This document shows positions 1,342 to 30,935 of a DNA stretch of 41,692 nt, in pieces (positions within the stretch are counted from its first letter, which is position 1; every line of letters begins with the position of its first letter). The stretch comes from an uncultured Gammaproteobacteria bacterium (lineage in GTDB: Bacteria; Patescibacteriota; Microgenomatia; UBA12405). The notes under the pieces are model-generated. The model searched no databases. It saw only the letters and a program-made list of their open reading frames with translations, and had not been told where the DNA came from. Location: contig CAZSQT010000005.1 in the NCBI GenBank assembly GCA_964609295.1, forward strand, positions 1 to 41,692. The letters are read 5' to 3'. The translations under genes and the position numbers were made by a program.

Positions 1342-1361
1342 GATTTTTCCACCCTATAATC

Positions 1362-1390
1362 TTGCTTTTTTCCACTTATTGTGATATAAT
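1362..1390 (+). promoter_or_regulatory. sigma70 promoter with extended -10
   Basis: TTGCTT (1362-1367), 17 bp, TGnTATAAT (1382-1390). A hairpin follows at 1395-1426. Confidence 0.7.
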
Positions 1391-1436
1391 CACGCACCTA
1401 GAGAATATAGCTTTCTCAATTAGGTGAACGTTAACA

Positions 1437-2482
1437 TGCAGTTAGTTTAGTATAGAAACCAATCTTTTTTTGGAAAAATTTAATTTATAGGGAGAAAGAA
1501 AGGTGAAAACCAAAACCCTCAAATTTTTTCAAAAAAGTTAAATATAGTCGTGTTTTTTTTCATATAAGATAGGTCAAAGACCTATCAAGAAAGGAATTAA
1601 AATGAAAAAAATTGTTTCATTTTTAATCATTGTTAGTTTGTTTTTTATTGTTGTCACCCCCTCTGGTATTGCATCGTATCCAACCAAAGACTTCTATTAT
1701 ACTCAATGGAATGCGATCACAGAAACAGAAACCACCGGGATTTTCTGCCATGGAATAGAGTTGCCACCGCAAAGCAGACCATCCATTCCCTCAGGAACAG
1801 AAACCACCTTGTATGTAGACGAGTGGTTGGCCGAAGGAACATCAATAGTGTTGTCAACCTATTTCTACAACGGAAGTAAGTCTGGATTCTTGGGAGTCTT
1901 CCAAGGCCCTCAACAAATCCGATTCAACTACAAAAACGGAGAGCGATTTTACACAAAATCAAAATATGCTCTTCGTTTTTTCCGATTTCGTTTCTGGTTT
2001 GGAATTGAGAACAGTTACTACCAAGTAAAGTTCCAAGTTCCGTCTAAGTGGTACTGGTCTGAGCAACAAGAAAAGCAGGGAATATATAACCCCCCTGCCG
2101 AAGAAAAGGATGAGGAATCCAAAATCGGTACATTAGCAAATGCCTTCAAGAACAATCCAAATTTTCATGATTTAAGGTCAGACTCCAGAATATACAGTAT
2201 TCGATCATATCCACAATCCAATCGAAGAGTCAGCATCTTTGTGTCATACTCAGACCAACGACAGGGAGGAATTCCATATCTAACCGTACAAGTTGGATCT
2301 TCCAACTACAATATCCCCTGCGTTTGGGAATCCCGCCAATCATGGCTTTTAATAATCGACATGGATTCAGAGGGGATATATAAGCAAGCCATAAATGAGG
2401 CTTGGAAGGATTTGAAAAGCAAATACGGACTCAATTTCGGGTACAGCATAGGCGTTTCCTATACCCCCCCAAACTAACTGCA
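1437..2482. repeat. inverted repeat pair bounding the 1602-2477 gene
   Basis: TGCAGTTAGTTT (1437-1448) is the exact reverse complement of AAACTAACTGCA (2471-2482). Similarity resumes inward as GTATAG(G)AAAC after a gap. Confidence 0.6.
1602..2477 (+). CDS. secreted hypothetical protein, atypical base composition
   Basis: 291-aa ORF with Sec-type signal peptide (MKKIVSFLIIVSLFFIVV) and SD-like AAGGA. Lacks the C-rich skew of neighbouring + strand genes. Confidence 0.8.
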   Translation: MKKIVSFLIIVSLFFIVVTPSGIASYPTKDFYYTQWNAITETETTGIFCHGIELPPQSRPSIPSGTETTLYVDEWLAEGTSIVLSTYFYNGSKSGFLGVFQGPQQIRFNYKNGERFYTKSKYALRFFRFRFWFGIENSYYQVKFQVPSKWYWSEQQEKQGIYNPPAEEKDEESKIGTLANAFKNNPNFHDLRSDSRIYSIRSYPQSNRRVSIFVSYSDQRQGGIPYLTVQVGSSNYNIPCVWESRQSWLLIIDMDSEGIYKQAINEAWKDLKSKYGLNFGYSIGVSYTPPN

Positions 2483-2486
2483 AAAA

Positions 2487-2562
2487 TAGCAGGAAGCCTT
2501 TAATTAATATTTAAGATTTTTTCTTTTATATTTTTTTCAGGCTTCCTGCTACTCGTTTTTTT
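2487..2562 (+). terminator. long-stem hairpin, possible intrinsic terminator
   Basis: Perfect 13-bp inverted repeat TAGCAGGAAGCCT (2487-2499)/AGGCTTCCTGCTA (2539-2551), 39-nt AT loop, T7 at 2556-2562. Confidence 0.5.
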
Positions 2563-2619
2563 ATCGGTGAAACCGATACTGATGAGTTCATATCAAATTA
2601 TGATTAGAACGAAAAAAAC
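2555..2619 (+). ncRNA. candidate type III hammerhead ribozyme
   Basis: Stem III GTTTTT (2555-60)/AAAAAC (2614-19). Unpaired T2561. Stem I TATCGG/CCGATA (2562-78). Core CTGATGA (2579-85). Stem II GTTC..GAAC (2586-2610). Core GAAA (2611-14). Confidence 0.65.
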
Positions 2620-3478
2620 AAAAAAATTAGTTACTGTCTATATGCCCGTCTTTAATGCGTCCAAGTTTCTTCATCAATCCATCGAAAGTATCTTAAACCA
2701 AACTTATTCCAATTTTGAATTCATCATCGTCGACGACGCTTCCACCGACAATTCTTGGAAAATCATCCGCTCCTATGCCAAAAAAGATAAACGCATTATC
2801 GCGATAAAAAATAATATTAATTTAGGCGTTTCTTTAACCTCAAATATCGCTATTTCCAAAGCCAAAGGAGAATTTCTCGCCCGCATGGATGCCGACGATA
2901 TTTCCTTTTCTGATCGTCTCGAAAAACAATTAAATTATTTTAAAAAACACTCAAATACTGTCGCTATCGGTGGCCAATGTGTCGTTATCGATGAAAATAA
3001 TCACCTAATCGGTAATAAAAATTTCCCCACCGAAGCCAATAAATTAAAAGAAATGATTTTTTGGGCTATCCCCATGCAGCAACCATCAACCATGATTAAT
3101 CTAAAAAAATTACCCAAAAACTTTACTTGGTATTCTCCAAGTGTTACTTCTGCCGAAGAAATAAATCTTATGTTTCGTCTTATGCTCCATGGTAATATCG
3201 CCAATCTTTCTCAAAACATACTTTTTTATCGTCACTTAAATAATAGTCTTTCTCACAAAAATCCCAAAGAAACTTTTAAATTAACTTTAAAAAGTCGCTA
3301 CGACGCTCTTTCTTTAGGCTTTAAACCAAGTATCAAAGCTATTTTTATAAATATTCTTCAAATCATCGCCGTCCTGACAATTCCCTCTCATCTCATAAAC
3401 GAAATTTGGTGTCAACTAAGAGGTATTAAGACTAACAATAATCTATCTGTTAGAACTTATGCCCAAAGCCAAGTATAA
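2600..3478 (+). CDS. glycosyltransferase family 2
   Basis: VTVYMPVFN, IIVDDASTD and RMDADD (DxD) motifs. ATG 2600 preferred over GTG 2567 because the GT-A fold begins about 10 aa later. Confidence 0.9.
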   Translation: MIRTKKTKKLVTVYMPVFNASKFLHQSIESILNQTYSNFEFIIVDDASTDNSWKIIRSYAKKDKRIIAIKNNINLGVSLTSNIAISKAKGEFLARMDADDISFSDRLEKQLNYFKKHSNTVAIGGQCVVIDENNHLIGNKNFPTEANKLKEMIFWAIPMQQPSTMINLKKLPKNFTWYSPSVTSAEEINLMFRLMLHGNIANLSQNILFYRHLNNSLSHKNPKETFKLTLKSRYDALSLGFKPSIKAIFINILQIIAVLTIPSHLINEIWCQLRGIKTNNNLSVRTYAQSQV

Positions 3479-3489
3479 TCTATTTATAA

Positions 3490-6201
3490 ATGCTAATGTC
3501 AAAAATAAAAAAACACTTTGACAAAATTTTACTCGCCCTCATTGTTCTCTTTCTTTGTCTTCGTAATTATAGTCTCGGCACCTATCTTATCGGCTGGGAC
3601 AATCTCATGCCCGAATTAAATATATTTTTAAATATCAAAAGATCACTATTGTCTGTCTGGCAATATTATCAAGGACTGGGCCTTGTCGGTGGCATGGCTC
3701 ATAGCACCGATCTTATTCGTCAGCTAATTATTCTCCCTTTCACTCTAATCCTTCCCACTAGCCTAATTAGATATCTCTATCACTTCGCCACCCTCCTTGT
3801 CGGCACCTTTGGTATCTATTTTGGTCTAAAAAAATATTTCAAAAATAGTCGCCCAATTTATTTTATCTCTTCTCTTTTTTATCTACTTAATTTTGGCACT
3901 ATCCAAAATTATTGGCCACCATTTGAACCATTTTCCACCTTTTTTGCTTTTTTCCCTTGGCTAATTTTTTCCCTCTTAAACTACCTAGATAAACCAGATA
4001 AATCAAAATTAAAAAAACTAATTATTATAAATATTCTCGCCATTCCCAGTTTTTATGTTCAAACCATCTTTTTAGTTTATCTTTTTACTCTCGCCTCAAT
4101 TCTCATCCCCTACCTTATTTTTCATCAACAACAATTCAAAATCAAAATCAAAAAAACTTTTTTTATTGGTATCTTAATCTTTTGCCTCAATGCTTTTTGG
4201 CTCCTACCTTTTGTCTACTTTCTCAAAAACGATGTCGCCAATACCCAACTTGGCATCGGTAACCTTATTGCCTCAGAAGAAACCGTTCATCGCAATGAAT
4301 ACCGTGGCACCATCTCTGATTTTCTAATTTTAAGAGGTTATTATTATGATTTTCCTTTTGCCGGTGGACTCCTAATGTCTTCTTGGTCAAACTATTTCTC
4401 TTCACCCATTATCCTAATTATTATCTATTCTCTAAGCTCTATTGTCATCCTTGGATTGACCAAAATAATTTTTAAAAAAACAAAAAATTACAAAATTATT
4501 GCCCTTATTTCACTGTTTTTTATCTCTTGTATTGCTCTTCTTTCTGCTACCCCACCATTTAATTTCATCAACGATCTAATTCGCCAAATACCTATTTTAA
4601 ATCAAGTTTTTCGCTCTCCTTTTACTAAATTTATTGTTCCTGCTAGTTTTTGTTTTACTCTTCTTTTTGCTTTCGGTCTCCAATTTGTCGCCAAATTAAA
4701 TCTAAAAATTAAAAAAATTATCTACGGCTTAATTATAATTTTAATTTTCATTTCAGCTTATCCTGCTTTTAAAGGTAATTATATTTACCCTTCAATGCGT
4801 CAACAAATACCCCAATCTTATTTTCAACTCATAAACTTTTTTAAGGACAAACCAAAAAATTCTCGCATCGCCAATTTACCTTCTGGTAGTTATTGGGGTT
4901 GGACTAATTATCGCCATGGCATTACTGGCTCTGGTTTTATTTGGTATGGCATAGAGCAACCAATTCTTGATAGAGCTTTCGATGTTTGGAGTTTAAAAAA
5001 TGAACAATATTATTGGGAACTAAACTACGCTATCCAAAAGCAAGACCAAAATCTTTTAAATCAAATCATTGAAAAATATTTTATTTCCTACCTTATTTTT
5101 GATAACGATGTTATTTTTCCCGATGAAGCAATTTATGGCAGAAATGCTATTCGTACCAGAGAAATACTAAAAGAAATGCCTAATTTAAAACTAGAAGCCC
5201 AATTTGATAATCTATATATCTATAAAACAAATTTTGATACCTCTCCTAAAATAATTAACAATCCTCAAAATATCAAACAAAATAACTTTTTTTATCAAGA
5301 TATTGCTTTCACTAATCATCATCATTACATTTCTACCAAGCAAGCTCAAATAACTTATCCTTTTGCTAATTTATTTACCAATAGACTCCAAAATGAAATA
5401 CCTTTTGAAATAAAAATTGAAAACAACACTCTCTTTATAGACGATACCCCTTTTCCTATTTATCAAACTTATTCTTTTTCTAACCCAACTCAAACAGATC
5501 TTAATCTAGAAATTGATAATCCGAAAAATTCTCAAGAAATAATCAGTGAAAATCAAAATTTTATTCGTCTTAAATCATCCTCGACCAATAATTTGCTTGG
5601 TAAATATTTCCCAGATATTTCATACGACAATTCCTATCTTATCAAAATCACTTATAGACATATAGACAATTACCCTCTTATCATAAGTGCTTTTGGTGAA
5701 CAATCAAAACAAACATTTTTCACCACCAAATTAGAAAAAAATAAAGATTGGCAAACTGCTTGGTTTGTAATCCCTAAACACAAAAATAATGCTTTTGAAA
5801 AAAGTTTAACCATTCTTTTTAACAATACTACTTTTAACAAAAAAACTACCATAAATGACATTAAAGATATAGAAATATATCAAATCCCCTACCAAGATAT
5901 TATTAACACCAAAATTATTTCTAATTCACAATATCAAAACACATCATATTTAGTCTACCCCCAATCCTACCACCCCGGTTGGCTCGCCTTCTATCTCGAT
6001 GGCTACAAACCAGTATTTCTCAAAGATCATGTCCTTGTCAACAATTGGGCCAACGGTTGGCAATTACCAATTACTAATTACCAGTTACAAAACAAAATAT
6101 ATTATTTTTTCTGGCCTCAACTCCTCCAATACCTCGGCTTTATACTAGGATTATATGTTTTGTTTCAATCTATCAATAAACCACATTCTAAGCATAGTTG
6201 A
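3490..6201 (+). CDS. large polytopic membrane protein, GT-C/AftD(DUF3367)-YfhO-like glycosyltransferase
   Basis: 903 aa. Many TM segments in the N-terminal half, a soluble domain, C-terminal QSYHPGW and HVLVNNWANGW motifs plus a last TM. Adjacent to GT2. Confidence 0.7.
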   Translation: MLMSKIKKHFDKILLALIVLFLCLRNYSLGTYLIGWDNLMPELNIFLNIKRSLLSVWQYYQGLGLVGGMAHSTDLIRQLIILPFTLILPTSLIRYLYHFATLLVGTFGIYFGLKKYFKNSRPIYFISSLFYLLNFGTIQNYWPPFEPFSTFFAFFPWLIFSLLNYLDKPDKSKLKKLIIINILAIPSFYVQTIFLVYLFTLASILIPYLIFHQQQFKIKIKKTFFIGILIFCLNAFWLLPFVYFLKNDVANTQLGIGNLIASEETVHRNEYRGTISDFLILRGYYYDFPFAGGLLMSSWSNYFSSPIILIIIYSLSSIVILGLTKIIFKKTKNYKIIALISLFFISCIALLSATPPFNFINDLIRQIPILNQVFRSPFTKFIVPASFCFTLLFAFGLQFVAKLNLKIKKIIYGLIIILIFISAYPAFKGNYIYPSMRQQIPQSYFQLINFFKDKPKNSRIANLPSGSYWGWTNYRHGITGSGFIWYGIEQPILDRAFDVWSLKNEQYYWELNYAIQKQDQNLLNQIIEKYFISYLIFDNDVIFPDEAIYGRNAIRTREILKEMPNLKLEAQFDNLYIYKTNFDTSPKIINNPQNIKQNNFFYQDIAFTNHHHYISTKQAQITYPFANLFTNRLQNEIPFEIKIENNTLFIDDTPFPIYQTYSFSNPTQTDLNLEIDNPKNSQEIISENQNFIRLKSSSTNNLLGKYFPDISYDNSYLIKITYRHIDNYPLIISAFGEQSKQTFFTTKLEKNKDWQTAWFVIPKHKNNAFEKSLTILFNNTTFNKKTTINDIKDIEIYQIPYQDIINTKIISNSQYQNTSYLVYPQSYHPGWLAFYLDGYKPVFLKDHVLVNNWANGWQLPITNYQLQNKIYYFFWPQLLQYLGFILGLYVLFQSINKPHSKHS
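6061..6088 (+). repeat. 7-mer tandem repeat (YARTTAC x4) inside CDS
   Basis: CAATTAC CAATTAC TAATTAC CAGTTAC, encoding QLPITNYQL. Confidence 0.8.
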
Positions 6202-6838: not shown

Positions 6839-7573
6839 TCACCCTAAATTTTTAATTTCGTTATTCAAAAAAAACAAAACCTCACTCTTTAAATATTTTT
6901 TAACTTTCTTAAAATTTTCTACCGGCAAAAGAGTATTCAAATCCTGATCAATCAAAGTTTGGCTAACTTTACTATCGACAAAATCATGCAAATAAATAAA
7001 ATATTTTTTAATTTCCCACCCAGTTCTCTCTTCAATTACTTTTCCATTATATTTTAATTTACTAATAAAAAAATGATGAATATCATAAATATCCCGCCCA
7101 GCAATCGATTTCCGACGGTCATAACGATCTTTAACCGCCACTAGCTTATTGGCAAAAATAGTCTCTTTACTTTGACAATTAACCGTCCTCCCAATTTCAG
7201 GCAAAAAAACCGGCAAATAAATATTTGCTTTAACTAAAAAATCAAGAGCGTCAATTTTTAAAGTATTTCTTTCATTAGGTAAACTCTCATATTTCAAAAA
7301 AAATTCTAATGCTTCTTGACTCTCTTGTTTTAAAACAAAACCAAGTTCATCAAAAAGTTTGTGAAATTCTAACCTTATTTTATCCTTCTCCCCATCAACT
7401 TTAAAATCAAAATCAAGATCAACTGAAAATCTATCCAAAATACCCATCATTGCCGCACAAGTTCCACCTTTAAAATACAAATTAGATGACAAAAGAGGAT
7501 TATCTACAATTGCCGTTAACACTCTTAATAAATGAGCTTTGTGAATAGCATCAACTGGTCGTAAACTAATCAT
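6839..7573 (-). CDS. AbiEii-family nucleotidyltransferase toxin (type IV TA)
   Basis: FKGGT, RFSVDLDF, NKLVA and RDIYDI motifs. Confidence 0.9.
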   Translation of the reverse strand: MISLRPVDAIHKAHLLRVLTAIVDNPLLSSNLYFKGGTCAAMMGILDRFSVDLDFDFKVDGEKDKIRLEFHKLFDELGFVLKQESQEALEFFLKYESLPNERNTLKIDALDFLVKANIYLPVFLPEIGRTVNCQSKETIFANKLVAVKDRYDRRKSIAGRDIYDIHHFFISKLKYNGKVIEERTGWEIKKYFIYLHDFVDSKVSQTLIDQDLNTLLPVENFKKVKKYLKSEVLFFLNNEIKNLG

Positions 7574-8114
7574 AAATTTGTTTTTTGTAATTTTTAACTA
7601 AATTCCAATTGATTAAATCAACTCCATCAAAATGATATTGCGGTCGAAAATACAACATATCAACTACCGCCCTCTCAAGATTAGCCACCAAAAAACCTTG
7701 CTCATCTTCAGTAATTCCTAAAGTATTATGTAAAGACCTAACTTTTAATTGTCTGACTAAATAAATATTCTCTTCCAATACAAAATTATCAGAAAAAGAA
7801 GATACAAAAGTAATTTTATTAACCGGCTGATTAATCACTCCCTTCATGGACAAGACTGACTCAGTACTTAAATAAGCAAAACTATTAATTGCCCTAAAAC
7901 CAAGATTAATTGGATTAATCTGACCAAGAGGAACAACGCTATAAAAACCTTTTTGAACTCGGAAAAGAATCCCTTTTTTAACTAAACGATAAATTGTCTG
8001 ATAAAGAGTTTTCAAATTACTTATTTTCCAAAGCACTGCCAAATCTGCCGTATGAAATAACTTTTCTTTCTGTTTTAATAATATGGCTATTTTATCCATA
8101 TGTCTACTTATCAT
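7566..8114 (-). CDS. AbiEi-family antitoxin / transcriptional regulator
   Basis: N-terminal wHTH (RLVKKGILFRVQKGFY), AYLSTESVL and ERAVVDML motifs. Start may be 8099. Confidence 0.85.
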   Translation of the reverse strand: MISRHMDKIAILLKQKEKLFHTADLAVLWKISNLKTLYQTIYRLVKKGILFRVQKGFYSVVPLGQINPINLGFRAINSFAYLSTESVLSMKGVINQPVNKITFVSSFSDNFVLEENIYLVRQLKVRSLHNTLGITEDEQGFLVANLERAVVDMLYFRPQYHFDGVDLINWNLVKNYKKQIYD

Positions 8115-20310: not shown

Positions 20311-20374
20311 GACTTATTATACTACAAATTACCCATATACAAAAGCCTTTTTAACTGATACAATACCCTTTATA

Positions 20375-20457
20375 ACCGAAGACAGTAGGTACAAACATAA
20401 ATCCTACCGAGGAAATCTTTTTTAATATTGATCCCCTCTTCGGTCGGGGATTTTTTT
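20375..20457 (+). promoter_or_regulatory. ribosomal protein L10 leader with attenuator-like hairpin
   Basis: CCGAAGACAGTAGG..TAA..CCTACCGAGG matches the L10-leader pattern, followed by ATCCCC..GGGGAT+T7. TGnTACAAT upstream at 20356-64. Confidence 0.85.
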
Positions 20458-20465
20458 ATAACACT

Positions 20466-30754: not shown

Positions 30755-30827
30755 CGGAGATTGGCGCAATTGGTAGCGCGCAGCGTTCGGGACGCTGAGG
30801 TTGCTGGTTCGAATCCAGTATCTCCGA
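30755..30827 (+). tRNA. tRNA-Pro(CGG)
   Basis: Acceptor CGGAGAT/ATCTCCG, anticodon arm CAGCG-TTCGGGA-CGCTG, T-loop GTTCGAATC. CCA not encoded. Confidence 0.96.
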
Positions 30828-30863
30828 CAATTACTACTAATACTAATTATTAGTTACTAACTC

Positions 30864-30935
30864 GTCCTCATAGTTCAACGGATAGAACGCGGGTTTCCTA
30901 AACCTGAAATGGGGGTTCAATTCCCCCTGAGGATA
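30864..30935 (+). tRNA. tRNA-Arg(CCT)
   Basis: Acceptor GTCCTCA/TGAGGAT, anticodon arm CGGGT-TTCCTAA-ACCTG, T-loop GTTCAATTC. CCA not encoded. Confidence 0.95.

Follow-up and report, generated by a model that had tools for sequence, protein, structure and literature searches.

Architecture of the locus

We analyzed a 41,692-nt stretch of contig CAZSQT010000005.1 (the window, with coordinates counted from its first letter), part of a 718-kb Patescibacteria (Microgenomates) genome in which a putative type III hammerhead ribozyme lies at 2555-2619 on the forward strand. Upstream of it, on the same strand, is an orphan open reading frame (ORF) of 291 aa (1602..2477, +) with an N-terminal hydrophobic segment (19-mer at residue 1). 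A long stem-loop (2487..2551, +; -31 kcal/mol) with a 13-bp GC-rich outer stem and an AT-rich inner part starts 9 nt past the orphan stop codon and ends 3 nt ahead of stem III of the ribozyme. Downstream, a family 2 glycosyltransferase gene (GT2; 2600..3478, +; PF00535, E 5.5e-36) has its first 20 nt within the ribozyme and is followed after 11 nt by a gene encoding a 903-aa multi-pass membrane protein (3490..6201, +), for which no Pfam family was found at E<=0.01.

Every hammerhead element claimed for this site in an earlier note on the same DNA is in register at 2555-2619 and can be read directly from the sequence (all elements +). Stem III (2555-2560 / 2614-2619) has 6 bp, five U-A pairs and a closing G2555-C2619; its 5' strand (2555..2560) is a G followed by five U, U2560 being position 16.1, and the helix covaries in homologues. 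U2561, assigned to position 17 from the consensus alignment, is the single unpaired nucleotide, which places the predicted cleavage at 2561/2562 after a UUU triplet. The stem I hairpin (2562..2578; 2562-2568 / 2572-2578) forms 7 bp with a GAA loop or, alternatively, 6 bp with a 5-nt loop. Directly after A2578 begins the catalytic core CUGAUGA (C3 to A9; 2579..2585), whose columns are invariant in alignment A1, as are the GAA columns of G12 A13 A14 (2611-2613). Stem II (2586..2610) consists of a 4-bp GUUC/GAAC helix (2586-2589 / 2607-2610) with G2586-C2610 as its closing pair, then a 2x2 internal loop and a 4-bp AUCA/UGAU extension (2592-2595 / 2601-2604) with a 5-nt loop. The 3' strand of stem III (2614..2619) starts with A2614, position A15.1, which pairs with U2560, and 2611..2619 overlaps GT2 codons 4-7. 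The topology is that of type III, with helices I and II loop-capped, helix III open and the G10.1-C11.1 pair present; the core strand, G12 A13 A14 with A15.1-U16.1, and an unpaired non-G position 17 are likewise all found.

Homologous loci and covariation

A DNA search of 40 related genomes recovered the GT2 gene, with alignments mostly ending at the gene start. Among the 10 orthologous GT2 loci inspected, seven had CUGAUGA, a short stem II, GAA and stem III in the same place with different stems, and the motif was absent upstream of GT2 in L006, L011 and L012. The orthologous loci belong to genomes labelled Candidatus Shapirobacteria, Woesebacteria, Microgenomates or Patescibacteria group. 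The Rfam type III hammerhead model (RF00008) returned four matches on these first 10 loci (42.1, 40.3, 30.1 and 26.6 bits) and, on 20 of 30 further loci, 12 matches at E<=0.01, two of which exceeded the gathering score (L021, 49.2 bits; L037, 49.1 bits), the other ten lying at 32-47.5 bits.

A covariance model (R1) was built from eight copies with a hand-made structure line and two flanking bases on each side. R1 matched 81 of the 104 genomes of the taxonomic family at E<=0.01, with up to 6 copies per genome, and its coverage extended to 50/61 high-quality genomes and 23/29 genera. Judged by these matches, the hammerhead family is common in this Patescibacteria (Microgenomates) family. Across the order, at E<=0.001, R1 was found in 79/103 genomes of the family versus 3/28 genomes in six other families, and at E<=1e-4 in 17/150 genomes from an even sample of the phylum. 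Training inside the family and the flanking bases both bias the counts from outside it downward.

Three alignments fitted to the model were used to measure covariation. In A2 (36 copies: the window and 35 loci, own-genome duplicates excluded), 92.2% of stem cells were paired, as against 30-47% with slid partners, and 16 of 17 pairs were double-changed. The corresponding values were 95.6%, 30-49% and 16/17 for A3 (30 copies, none from the R1 training set) and 91.4%, 24-52% and 15/17 for A4 (24 copies upstream of GT2 orthologues). Observed values were reached by 0/500 column shuffles in each alignment. Fitting to the model and relatedness of the sequences both inflate such pairing measures; the slid-partner control preserves relatedness, yet gave far lower pairing. 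The 16.1/15.1 pair was U-A in 32/35, 28/30 and 21/24 sequences of A2, A3 and A4, respectively.

Across 79 distinct copies, position 17 was C in 41, U in 19, A in 18, G in none and a gap in one. The earlier note had cautioned that UUU is a weak cleavage context; this caveat is softened, since 5/79 distinct members of the family have UUU and none has G at position 17. The core read CUGAUGA in 69 copies, CUGACGA in 7 and CCGAUGA in 3. These last (L048, L069:1301-1356 and L070:1301-1356) have a C at the normally invariant core position 4 and may be inactive or tolerated variants.

The majority form of stem II in the ribozyme family is 4 bp with an AAAA loop. L064, from another genus, has the extended stem II of the window and differs from it in stems I and III by compensating changes (C-G to U-A in stem I). 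The hairpin ahead of the L064 ribozyme is unrelated to the window hairpin, and the 175 nt behind this ribozyme are non-coding, with no GT2 following. L043 has a related extended stem II, closed by GUUC/GAAC, that is likewise not coding. Since the extension is non-coding in both, it belongs to the ribozyme itself and is no consequence of coding sequence; in the window the start codon came to lie inside it.

Weighing the identification

Several observations, together with the bias of R1 given above, weigh against the reading of 2555-2619 as a working hammerhead. At gathering thresholds, RF00008 found no hammerhead in the whole window, the only Rfam matches there being an L10 leader and two tRNAs. 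Run permissively on 261 nt, the model aligned end to end at 17.2 bits (E 0.39), so that the covariance-model search that the earlier note had proposed as a check placed the copy far under the Rfam membership cut-off of 48.5 bits, a curated score that embodies no biochemical criterion. The earlier note's own caveat that stem III is A-U-rich also holds, five of its six pairs being A-U, and the extended stem II departs from the usual family form.

The isolated 65-mer has a minimum free energy (MFE) of -12.8 kcal/mol (z -2.2) with a fold that is essentially the hammerhead, the exact hammerhead fold having -11.8 kcal/mol. Within 183 nt of context, the hammerhead fold lies 2.9 kcal/mol above the MFE, in which 2551-2557 pairs with the core at 2581-2587. 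Pair probabilities for the window copy in context were 0.81-0.99 for stem I, ~0.1 for stem II and ~0.01 for stem III. For comparison we used the 66 copies of A2 and A3, a non-random sample that includes 8 founding copies (the window and 7 loci from the GT2 search), 28 copies in the best-scoring R1 loci, 20 regions with a long or paired match and 5 phylum matches; this selection enriches GT2-linked and long forms in every count drawn from it. Stem III probability was below 0.1 in 29/66 copies, one of them above the Rfam cut-off. Stem II probability was below 0.2 in only 7/66, with a family median of 0.94, which places the window copy among the weakest. The folding models leave out tertiary contacts and co-transcriptional folding. 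Natural hammerheads require loop-loop contacts between stems I and II for fast cleavage at cellular Mg2+.

An upstream "anti-core" strand was considered as a general feature of the family and rejected (median z 0.05, below -2 in 4/66 copies; window -1.6). Separately, L041:2774-2837 and L044:1501-1556 have a near-perfect complement of the hammerhead core in the upstream hairpin, on its 3' arm (duplexes of -10.8 kcal/mol, z -3.2 and -3.8), a possible local on/off switch that is not family-wide.

The low Rfam score raises the question of a chance look-alike, in which a U-run, an A-run and a short core fell together in AT-rich DNA. The genome has 32.5% G+C, stem III is a U-run against an A-run, and the window site, top of the four sub-threshold RF00008 matches in its genome, has counterparts below the cut-off in 7/14 control genomes. 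A type III descriptor with a minimum of 4 bp in each stem, run on both strands of the 718-kb genome, matched one site, 2555-2619, from 294 core matches, with two overlapping solutions there and stems of 7, 4 and 6 bp. In 60 dinucleotide-shuffled versions of the genome, the descriptor matched 0.083 times per genome on average, and stems of at least 6/4/6 bp appeared in 0/60. The window copy scored 56.2 bits with R1, a partly circular value since the window is among the 8 training sequences, and the L064 twin, outside the training set, scored 44.3 bits. Together with the orthologous position, the conserved core and the covarying stems in relatives, these results make a chance origin exceedingly improbable; it is refuted as far as comparison of sequences can refute it. 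The earlier note had named covariation in related genomes as a further check and homologues that conserve neither core nor stems as the outcome to fear. Homologous loci keep the core and their stems covary, with 15-16 of 17 pairs double-changed, despite the 17.2-bit Rfam score, and we conclude that 2555-2619 is very probably a genuine, if divergent, type III hammerhead and a true member of the family.

Descent from a hammerhead does not require useful activity, and the copy may have decayed or become very slow, its 3' half persisting as GT2 codons while the U-run and hairpin serve as an ordinary terminator. The low Rfam score, the A-U-rich stem III, the competing helix over the core and the stem II probability of ~0.1 against a family median of 0.94 all fit such decay. 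So does the closest GT2 orthologue, L006, which has a plain hairpin and U-run without a hammerhead. Set against this, no core position is altered, stem II still has its G-C closing pair, and the unusual stem II is kept with compensating changes in L064, L043 also having the GUUC/GAAC-closed extension. Coding constraint could account only for 2600-2619, leaving stem I, the core and the 5' strand of stem III outside its reach. Decay seems to us unlikely, and we judge it somewhat more likely than not that the window copy cleaves usefully in the cell.

A recurrent upstream gene and hairpin

The orphan ORF, which the earlier note took for a foreign gene, matched no Pfam or PHROGs family at E<=1e-5 and, at E<=1e-3, had no counterpart in the 103 other family genomes; these results make it an orphan. 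The 90-nt segment preceding the window ribozyme is strongly structured (z -8.2 versus shuffles), and this arrangement recurs. Among the 66 copies, a co-directional ORF of 70 aa or more terminates no more than 200 nt upstream (typically 55-125 nt) in 60, and in 61 the upstream 90 nt fold with z<-2 (median -31 kcal/mol, median z -5.6), as compared with 18/66 for the downstream 90 nt (median z -0.7). The distance from hairpin end to cleavage site is 7-12 nt (median 9) in 47/66 copies; the remaining 19 have tails of 14-43 nt, the longest mostly purine-rich. In several copies (L010, L013, L014, L015, L016, L018, L042 and others) a conserved purine-rich spacer of GAAAG/AAGAA runs ending GAGAUUAG lies between hairpin and hammerhead, 20-43 nt before the cleavage site; the window is without it.

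The earlier note had described the ribozyme as fused to a terminator tail. A hairpin and a U-run are indeed present, and the window tail, with 6 U in its last 8 nt, belongs to the most U-rich class of the set, a point in favor of a decayed ribozyme backed by a standard terminator. The terminator scan made no call at 2487-2551, which speaks against that explanation; the U-run there begins 5 nt past the stem, as against 0-2 nt between GC-rich hairpin and U-run in an intrinsic terminator. Moreover, only 15 of the 47 short tails adjacent to the hairpin have at least 5 U in their last 8 nt, so that the description as a terminator tail holds only in part.

Outside the family the same components were found in looser association. 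The exact 23-nt core with consensus stem II was present in 36 IMG/VR contigs and in at least 120 stretches of species-representative genomes, of which 80 became loci, most labelled Saccharibacteria, Paceibacteria or other Patescibacteria. Among the genome matches listed, stems I and III were present in 82/87, a structured upstream segment in 56/76 analyzed versus a structured downstream segment in 22/76, and a co-directional upstream ORF in 52/76, fold z for these loci coming from mononucleotide shuffles. Viral contigs had a structured upstream segment in 19/32, a structured downstream segment in 3/32 and a co-directional upstream ORF in 25/32. By these counts, the module appears to be wider than the family and looser outside it.

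Orphan, hairpin and hammerhead could also move together as a mobile cassette or phage-derived boundary. The ribozyme would then serve the element rather than the host operon, for example by giving rise to circular RNAs between pairs of ribozymes. At E<=1e-5, a Pfam family was assigned to only one of the 60 upstream ORFs (LemA), leaving 59 without; many of these ORFs are mutually unrelated between loci, and the window orphan is unmatched in 103 relatives. Hydrophobic 19-mers occur in 30/60. Several genomes carry two copies spaced 0.7-2.6 kb, the 23-nt core with stem II occurs in the 36 IMG/VR contigs, and the available passages of reviews tie bacterial hammerheads to prophages and small non-conserved ORFs (PMC6155905, PMC3088659). 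A phage link through PHROGs was examined and dropped, as only 4/60 upstream ORFs had matches, all weak or of unknown function. This genome has a single hammerhead copy, and hence no ribozyme pair; RtcB ligase was not found in it; and the position before GT2 is kept in 23/29 orthologous loci, which fits vertical inheritance at a host locus. A mobile or phage-derived role is accordingly very unlikely. Processing or insulation of messages by the hammerhead would instead be consistent with the family-wide context of an upstream gene and hairpin.

Overlap with the downstream glycosyltransferase gene

ATG 2600 is the best-supported GT2 start, 10 orthologues aligning from residue 1-10 of the protein that begins there, and the last 20 nt of the ribozyme consequently form GT2 codons 1-7. 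The claim that this start codon is hidden in stem II was borne out, with A2600 in the loop and U2601 and G2602 paired in the extension. The AUG of the core (2582), a conceivable alternative start, shares the reading frame of ATG 2600 here and, according to the ORF finder, that of the GT2 start in L013, L018 and L019 and of the downstream gene in L069 and L070; in L008, L010 and L015 it does not.

The ribozyme is directly upstream in 23 of the 29 loci whose GT2 is at least 47% identical to that of the window and in 0/50 loci with more distant GT2 homologues; these GT2-first loci overlap genomes already counted and are not independent of them. Co-directional downstream ORFs (41 and that of the window) encode GT2 in 18 loci and the window, adenylosuccinate synthetase in 3 and MscL in 1. 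In 12/66 copies the downstream ORF of at least 150 aa is convergent (7 MurB, 1 FKBP and 4 without a Pfam family, the convergent ORF of L020 having none). In relatives, homologues of the 903-aa membrane protein follow GT2, with 48-69% identity over their first 200-300 residues. The membrane-protein gene (3490-6201) is probably on the same processed mRNA as GT2, and its product may be a partner transferase of GT2.

This overlap raises another possible main role, control of initiation. The start and first codons of GT2 would be locked in stems II and III until the RNA is cut and the 5' strand of stem III departs, which would free the initiation region. The window start codon lies inside stem II, and in 16/18 other GT2 loci the best-supported start falls -2 to +15 nt from the end of stem III (for six of these the ORF finder had extended earlier, and the start nearest the GT2 alignment was taken), the exceptions being L007 (+47) and L061 (+73). 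The start also abuts stem III in one or more of the three loci with adenylosuccinate synthetase (L067, gap 0); in L052 and L070 the ORF finder puts the start inside the ribozyme. By eye, AGGA/GGGA of stem II stands 8-12 nt before the ATG in those loci, and in relatives a GGA-type ribosome-binding sequence is found in the 3' strand of stem II or III. There is precedent, in the available portions of the sources, in ribozyme cleavage that permits translation initiation in some RNA viruses (bioRxiv 10.1101/2024.05.16.594327) and in a haloviral hammerhead 13 nt ahead of a start codon (PMC3088659). The window itself has no evident ribosome-binding sequence ahead of ATG 2600. Across the sample, many copies lack a gene that could be gated: 12/66 precede a convergent ORF of at least 150 aa, and others have a 50-250 nt spacer to the next ORF. 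What accompanies the ribozyme constantly is the gene and hairpin ahead of it, not the start codon behind it. A translation gate is for these reasons improbable as the main function.

Other features of the window and its relatives

The promoter scan returned 10 sites versus 8.2 expected. A stretch at 1342-1440 (+), following an ORF at 142-1341, resembles by eye the stretch behind the L064 hammerhead. It has TATAAT-like boxes, and a promoter-like site at 1331-1360 scores 10/12, which suggests a conserved promoter region placed differently relative to the ribozyme in the window and in L064. Beside the hammerhead of L029, a bacterial relative, the RNA at 1596-1871 (-) gave its best listed match to the archaeal RNase P model, at 105 bits (cut-off 84); overlapping matches to other models of this clan, the bacterial one included, fall outside that listing.

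The minus strand at 6839-8114 codes for a nucleotidyltransferase toxin of the AbiEii type (PF08843, E 4e-19), overlapped by an AbiEi-like antitoxin (PF13338, E 2e-5, slightly short of the cut-off). Together they make up a type IV toxin-antitoxin or abortive-infection system in a genome of 0.7 Mb. An L10 ribosomal protein leader lies at 20358-20465 (+; 49.2 bits, cut-off 44) and two tRNA genes at 30755-30935 (+). Among the sequencing runs listed for 1500-4500 there was no RNA run. For 3646-4122, DNA runs X1 and X2 each contain a second contig set with 12-32 differences per 184-258 nt, many at third-codon-like positions, while 1500-2733 is identical to the window; this points to a co-occurring close strain.

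Proposed processing and relation to known systems

The explanation that we favor is that a divergent hammerhead ends a gene-hairpin-ribozyme module and uncouples two messages by self-cleavage; taken whole, we give it somewhat better than an even chance, and the narrower proposition that processing or insulation is the main role about an even one. RNA polymerase would transcribe the orphan gene (1602-2477) and read through the hairpin, and the ribozyme would fold once 2619 is made and cut after U2561. With the start codon inside stem II, folding must precede occupation of the site by a ribosome. The upstream mRNA would end with the hairpin and a 10-nt tail bearing a 2',3'-cyclic phosphate, in the same geometry as a transcript ended by termination. 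The mRNA for GT2 and the membrane protein would start at U2562 with a 5'-hydroxyl; because a type III ribozyme cuts at the base of stem I, this first nucleotide would already be paired. Orphan-gene and GT2 messages would thereby be uncoupled in stability and dosage, and ahead of a convergent gene the ribozyme would merely set a 3' end.

The genome encodes Rho, RNase J and RNase Y; RNase E/G and RtcB were not found in it at 97.9% completeness. RNase J degrades the 5'-hydroxyl product of the glmS ribozyme in Bacillus; it attacks single-stranded 5'-hydroxyl and 5'-monophosphate ends and is blocked by 5'-terminal stem-loops, as 3' exonucleases are by 3' hairpins. Given this behavior, both products would be protected, and unequal expression from one transcript would be possible.

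Self-cleaving leader RNAs such as the glmS ribozyme and RiboJ give a 5'-hydroxyl and a defined 5' end and alter stability or insulate. No ligand dependence is indicated here, and the hammerhead fold is unrelated to that of glmS; RiboJ is an engineered insulator, whereas the present arrangement is natural and lineage-wide. With intrinsic terminators the site shares the upstream product, a hairpin with a 7-12-nt tail (47/66 copies), U-rich in the window. It differs from them in that the end would be made by RNA self-cleavage while polymerase continues, in the scarcity of U-rich tails (15/47 short tails) and in the absence of a call by the terminator scan. With type III hammerheads (RF00008) it shares CUGAUGA, GAA, A15.1-U16.1, a non-G17, the stem II G-C closing pair and three helices, of which I and II are capped and only III is open, and its relatives reach the gathering score; the window copy differs in its 17.2 bits, its extended stem II bearing a start codon, its nearly all-A-U stem III and its UUU triplet.

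A published parallel is the prophage hammerhead. In the available text of Perreault et al. 2011 (PMC3088659), such ribozymes cluster around genes and are proposed to process long transcripts into gene-length mRNAs. Like the window copy, those described in the portions of PMC3088659 and PMC6155905 at hand lie between same-strand genes, often beside small non-conserved ORFs of unknown function. The window site differs from these descriptions in being a conserved chromosomal locus before a housekeeping-type GT2 (23/29 loci) and a single copy in its genome, with no integrase context seen, no search aimed at integrases or repeats having been made. A strong hairpin directly ahead, found in 61/66 copies, is a feature that we did not meet in those passages of the published descriptions. 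Bacterial hammerheads, their clustering at small unknown ORFs and the idea of processing are thus already in print in the texts available, where the role of bacterial hammerheads is an acknowledged open question (PMC6155905, PMC3088659, PMC8782182); what is added here is the adjacency of the hairpin and the conserved chromosomal locus. Full-text searches, with subscription journals and supplements outside their reach, listed no paper on hammerheads in the candidate phyla radiation, Patescibacteria or Saccharibacteria.

The case shows that the Rfam cut-off can miss real members in AT-rich genomes. It describes a hammerhead family in about three quarters of the genomes of one bacterial family, in a fixed place, after a co-directional gene and a strong hairpin and often touching a GT2 start codon, so that the question of function becomes a testable statement about mRNA ends. 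More tentatively, the hairpin and type III hammerhead of Patescibacteria could be a general means, inherited with the chromosome, of closing one message and opening the next, in which self-cleavage would license translation of the following gene. If this doubtful but attractive possibility were true, read-through transcripts would acquire a terminator-like 3' end, a hairpin with a 7-12-nt tail, without a U-run, and the downstream message would gain a paired 5'-hydroxyl stem I as its 5' end and a ribosome-binding region from stems II and III. This would be the first defined housekeeping role of hammerheads in bacteria.

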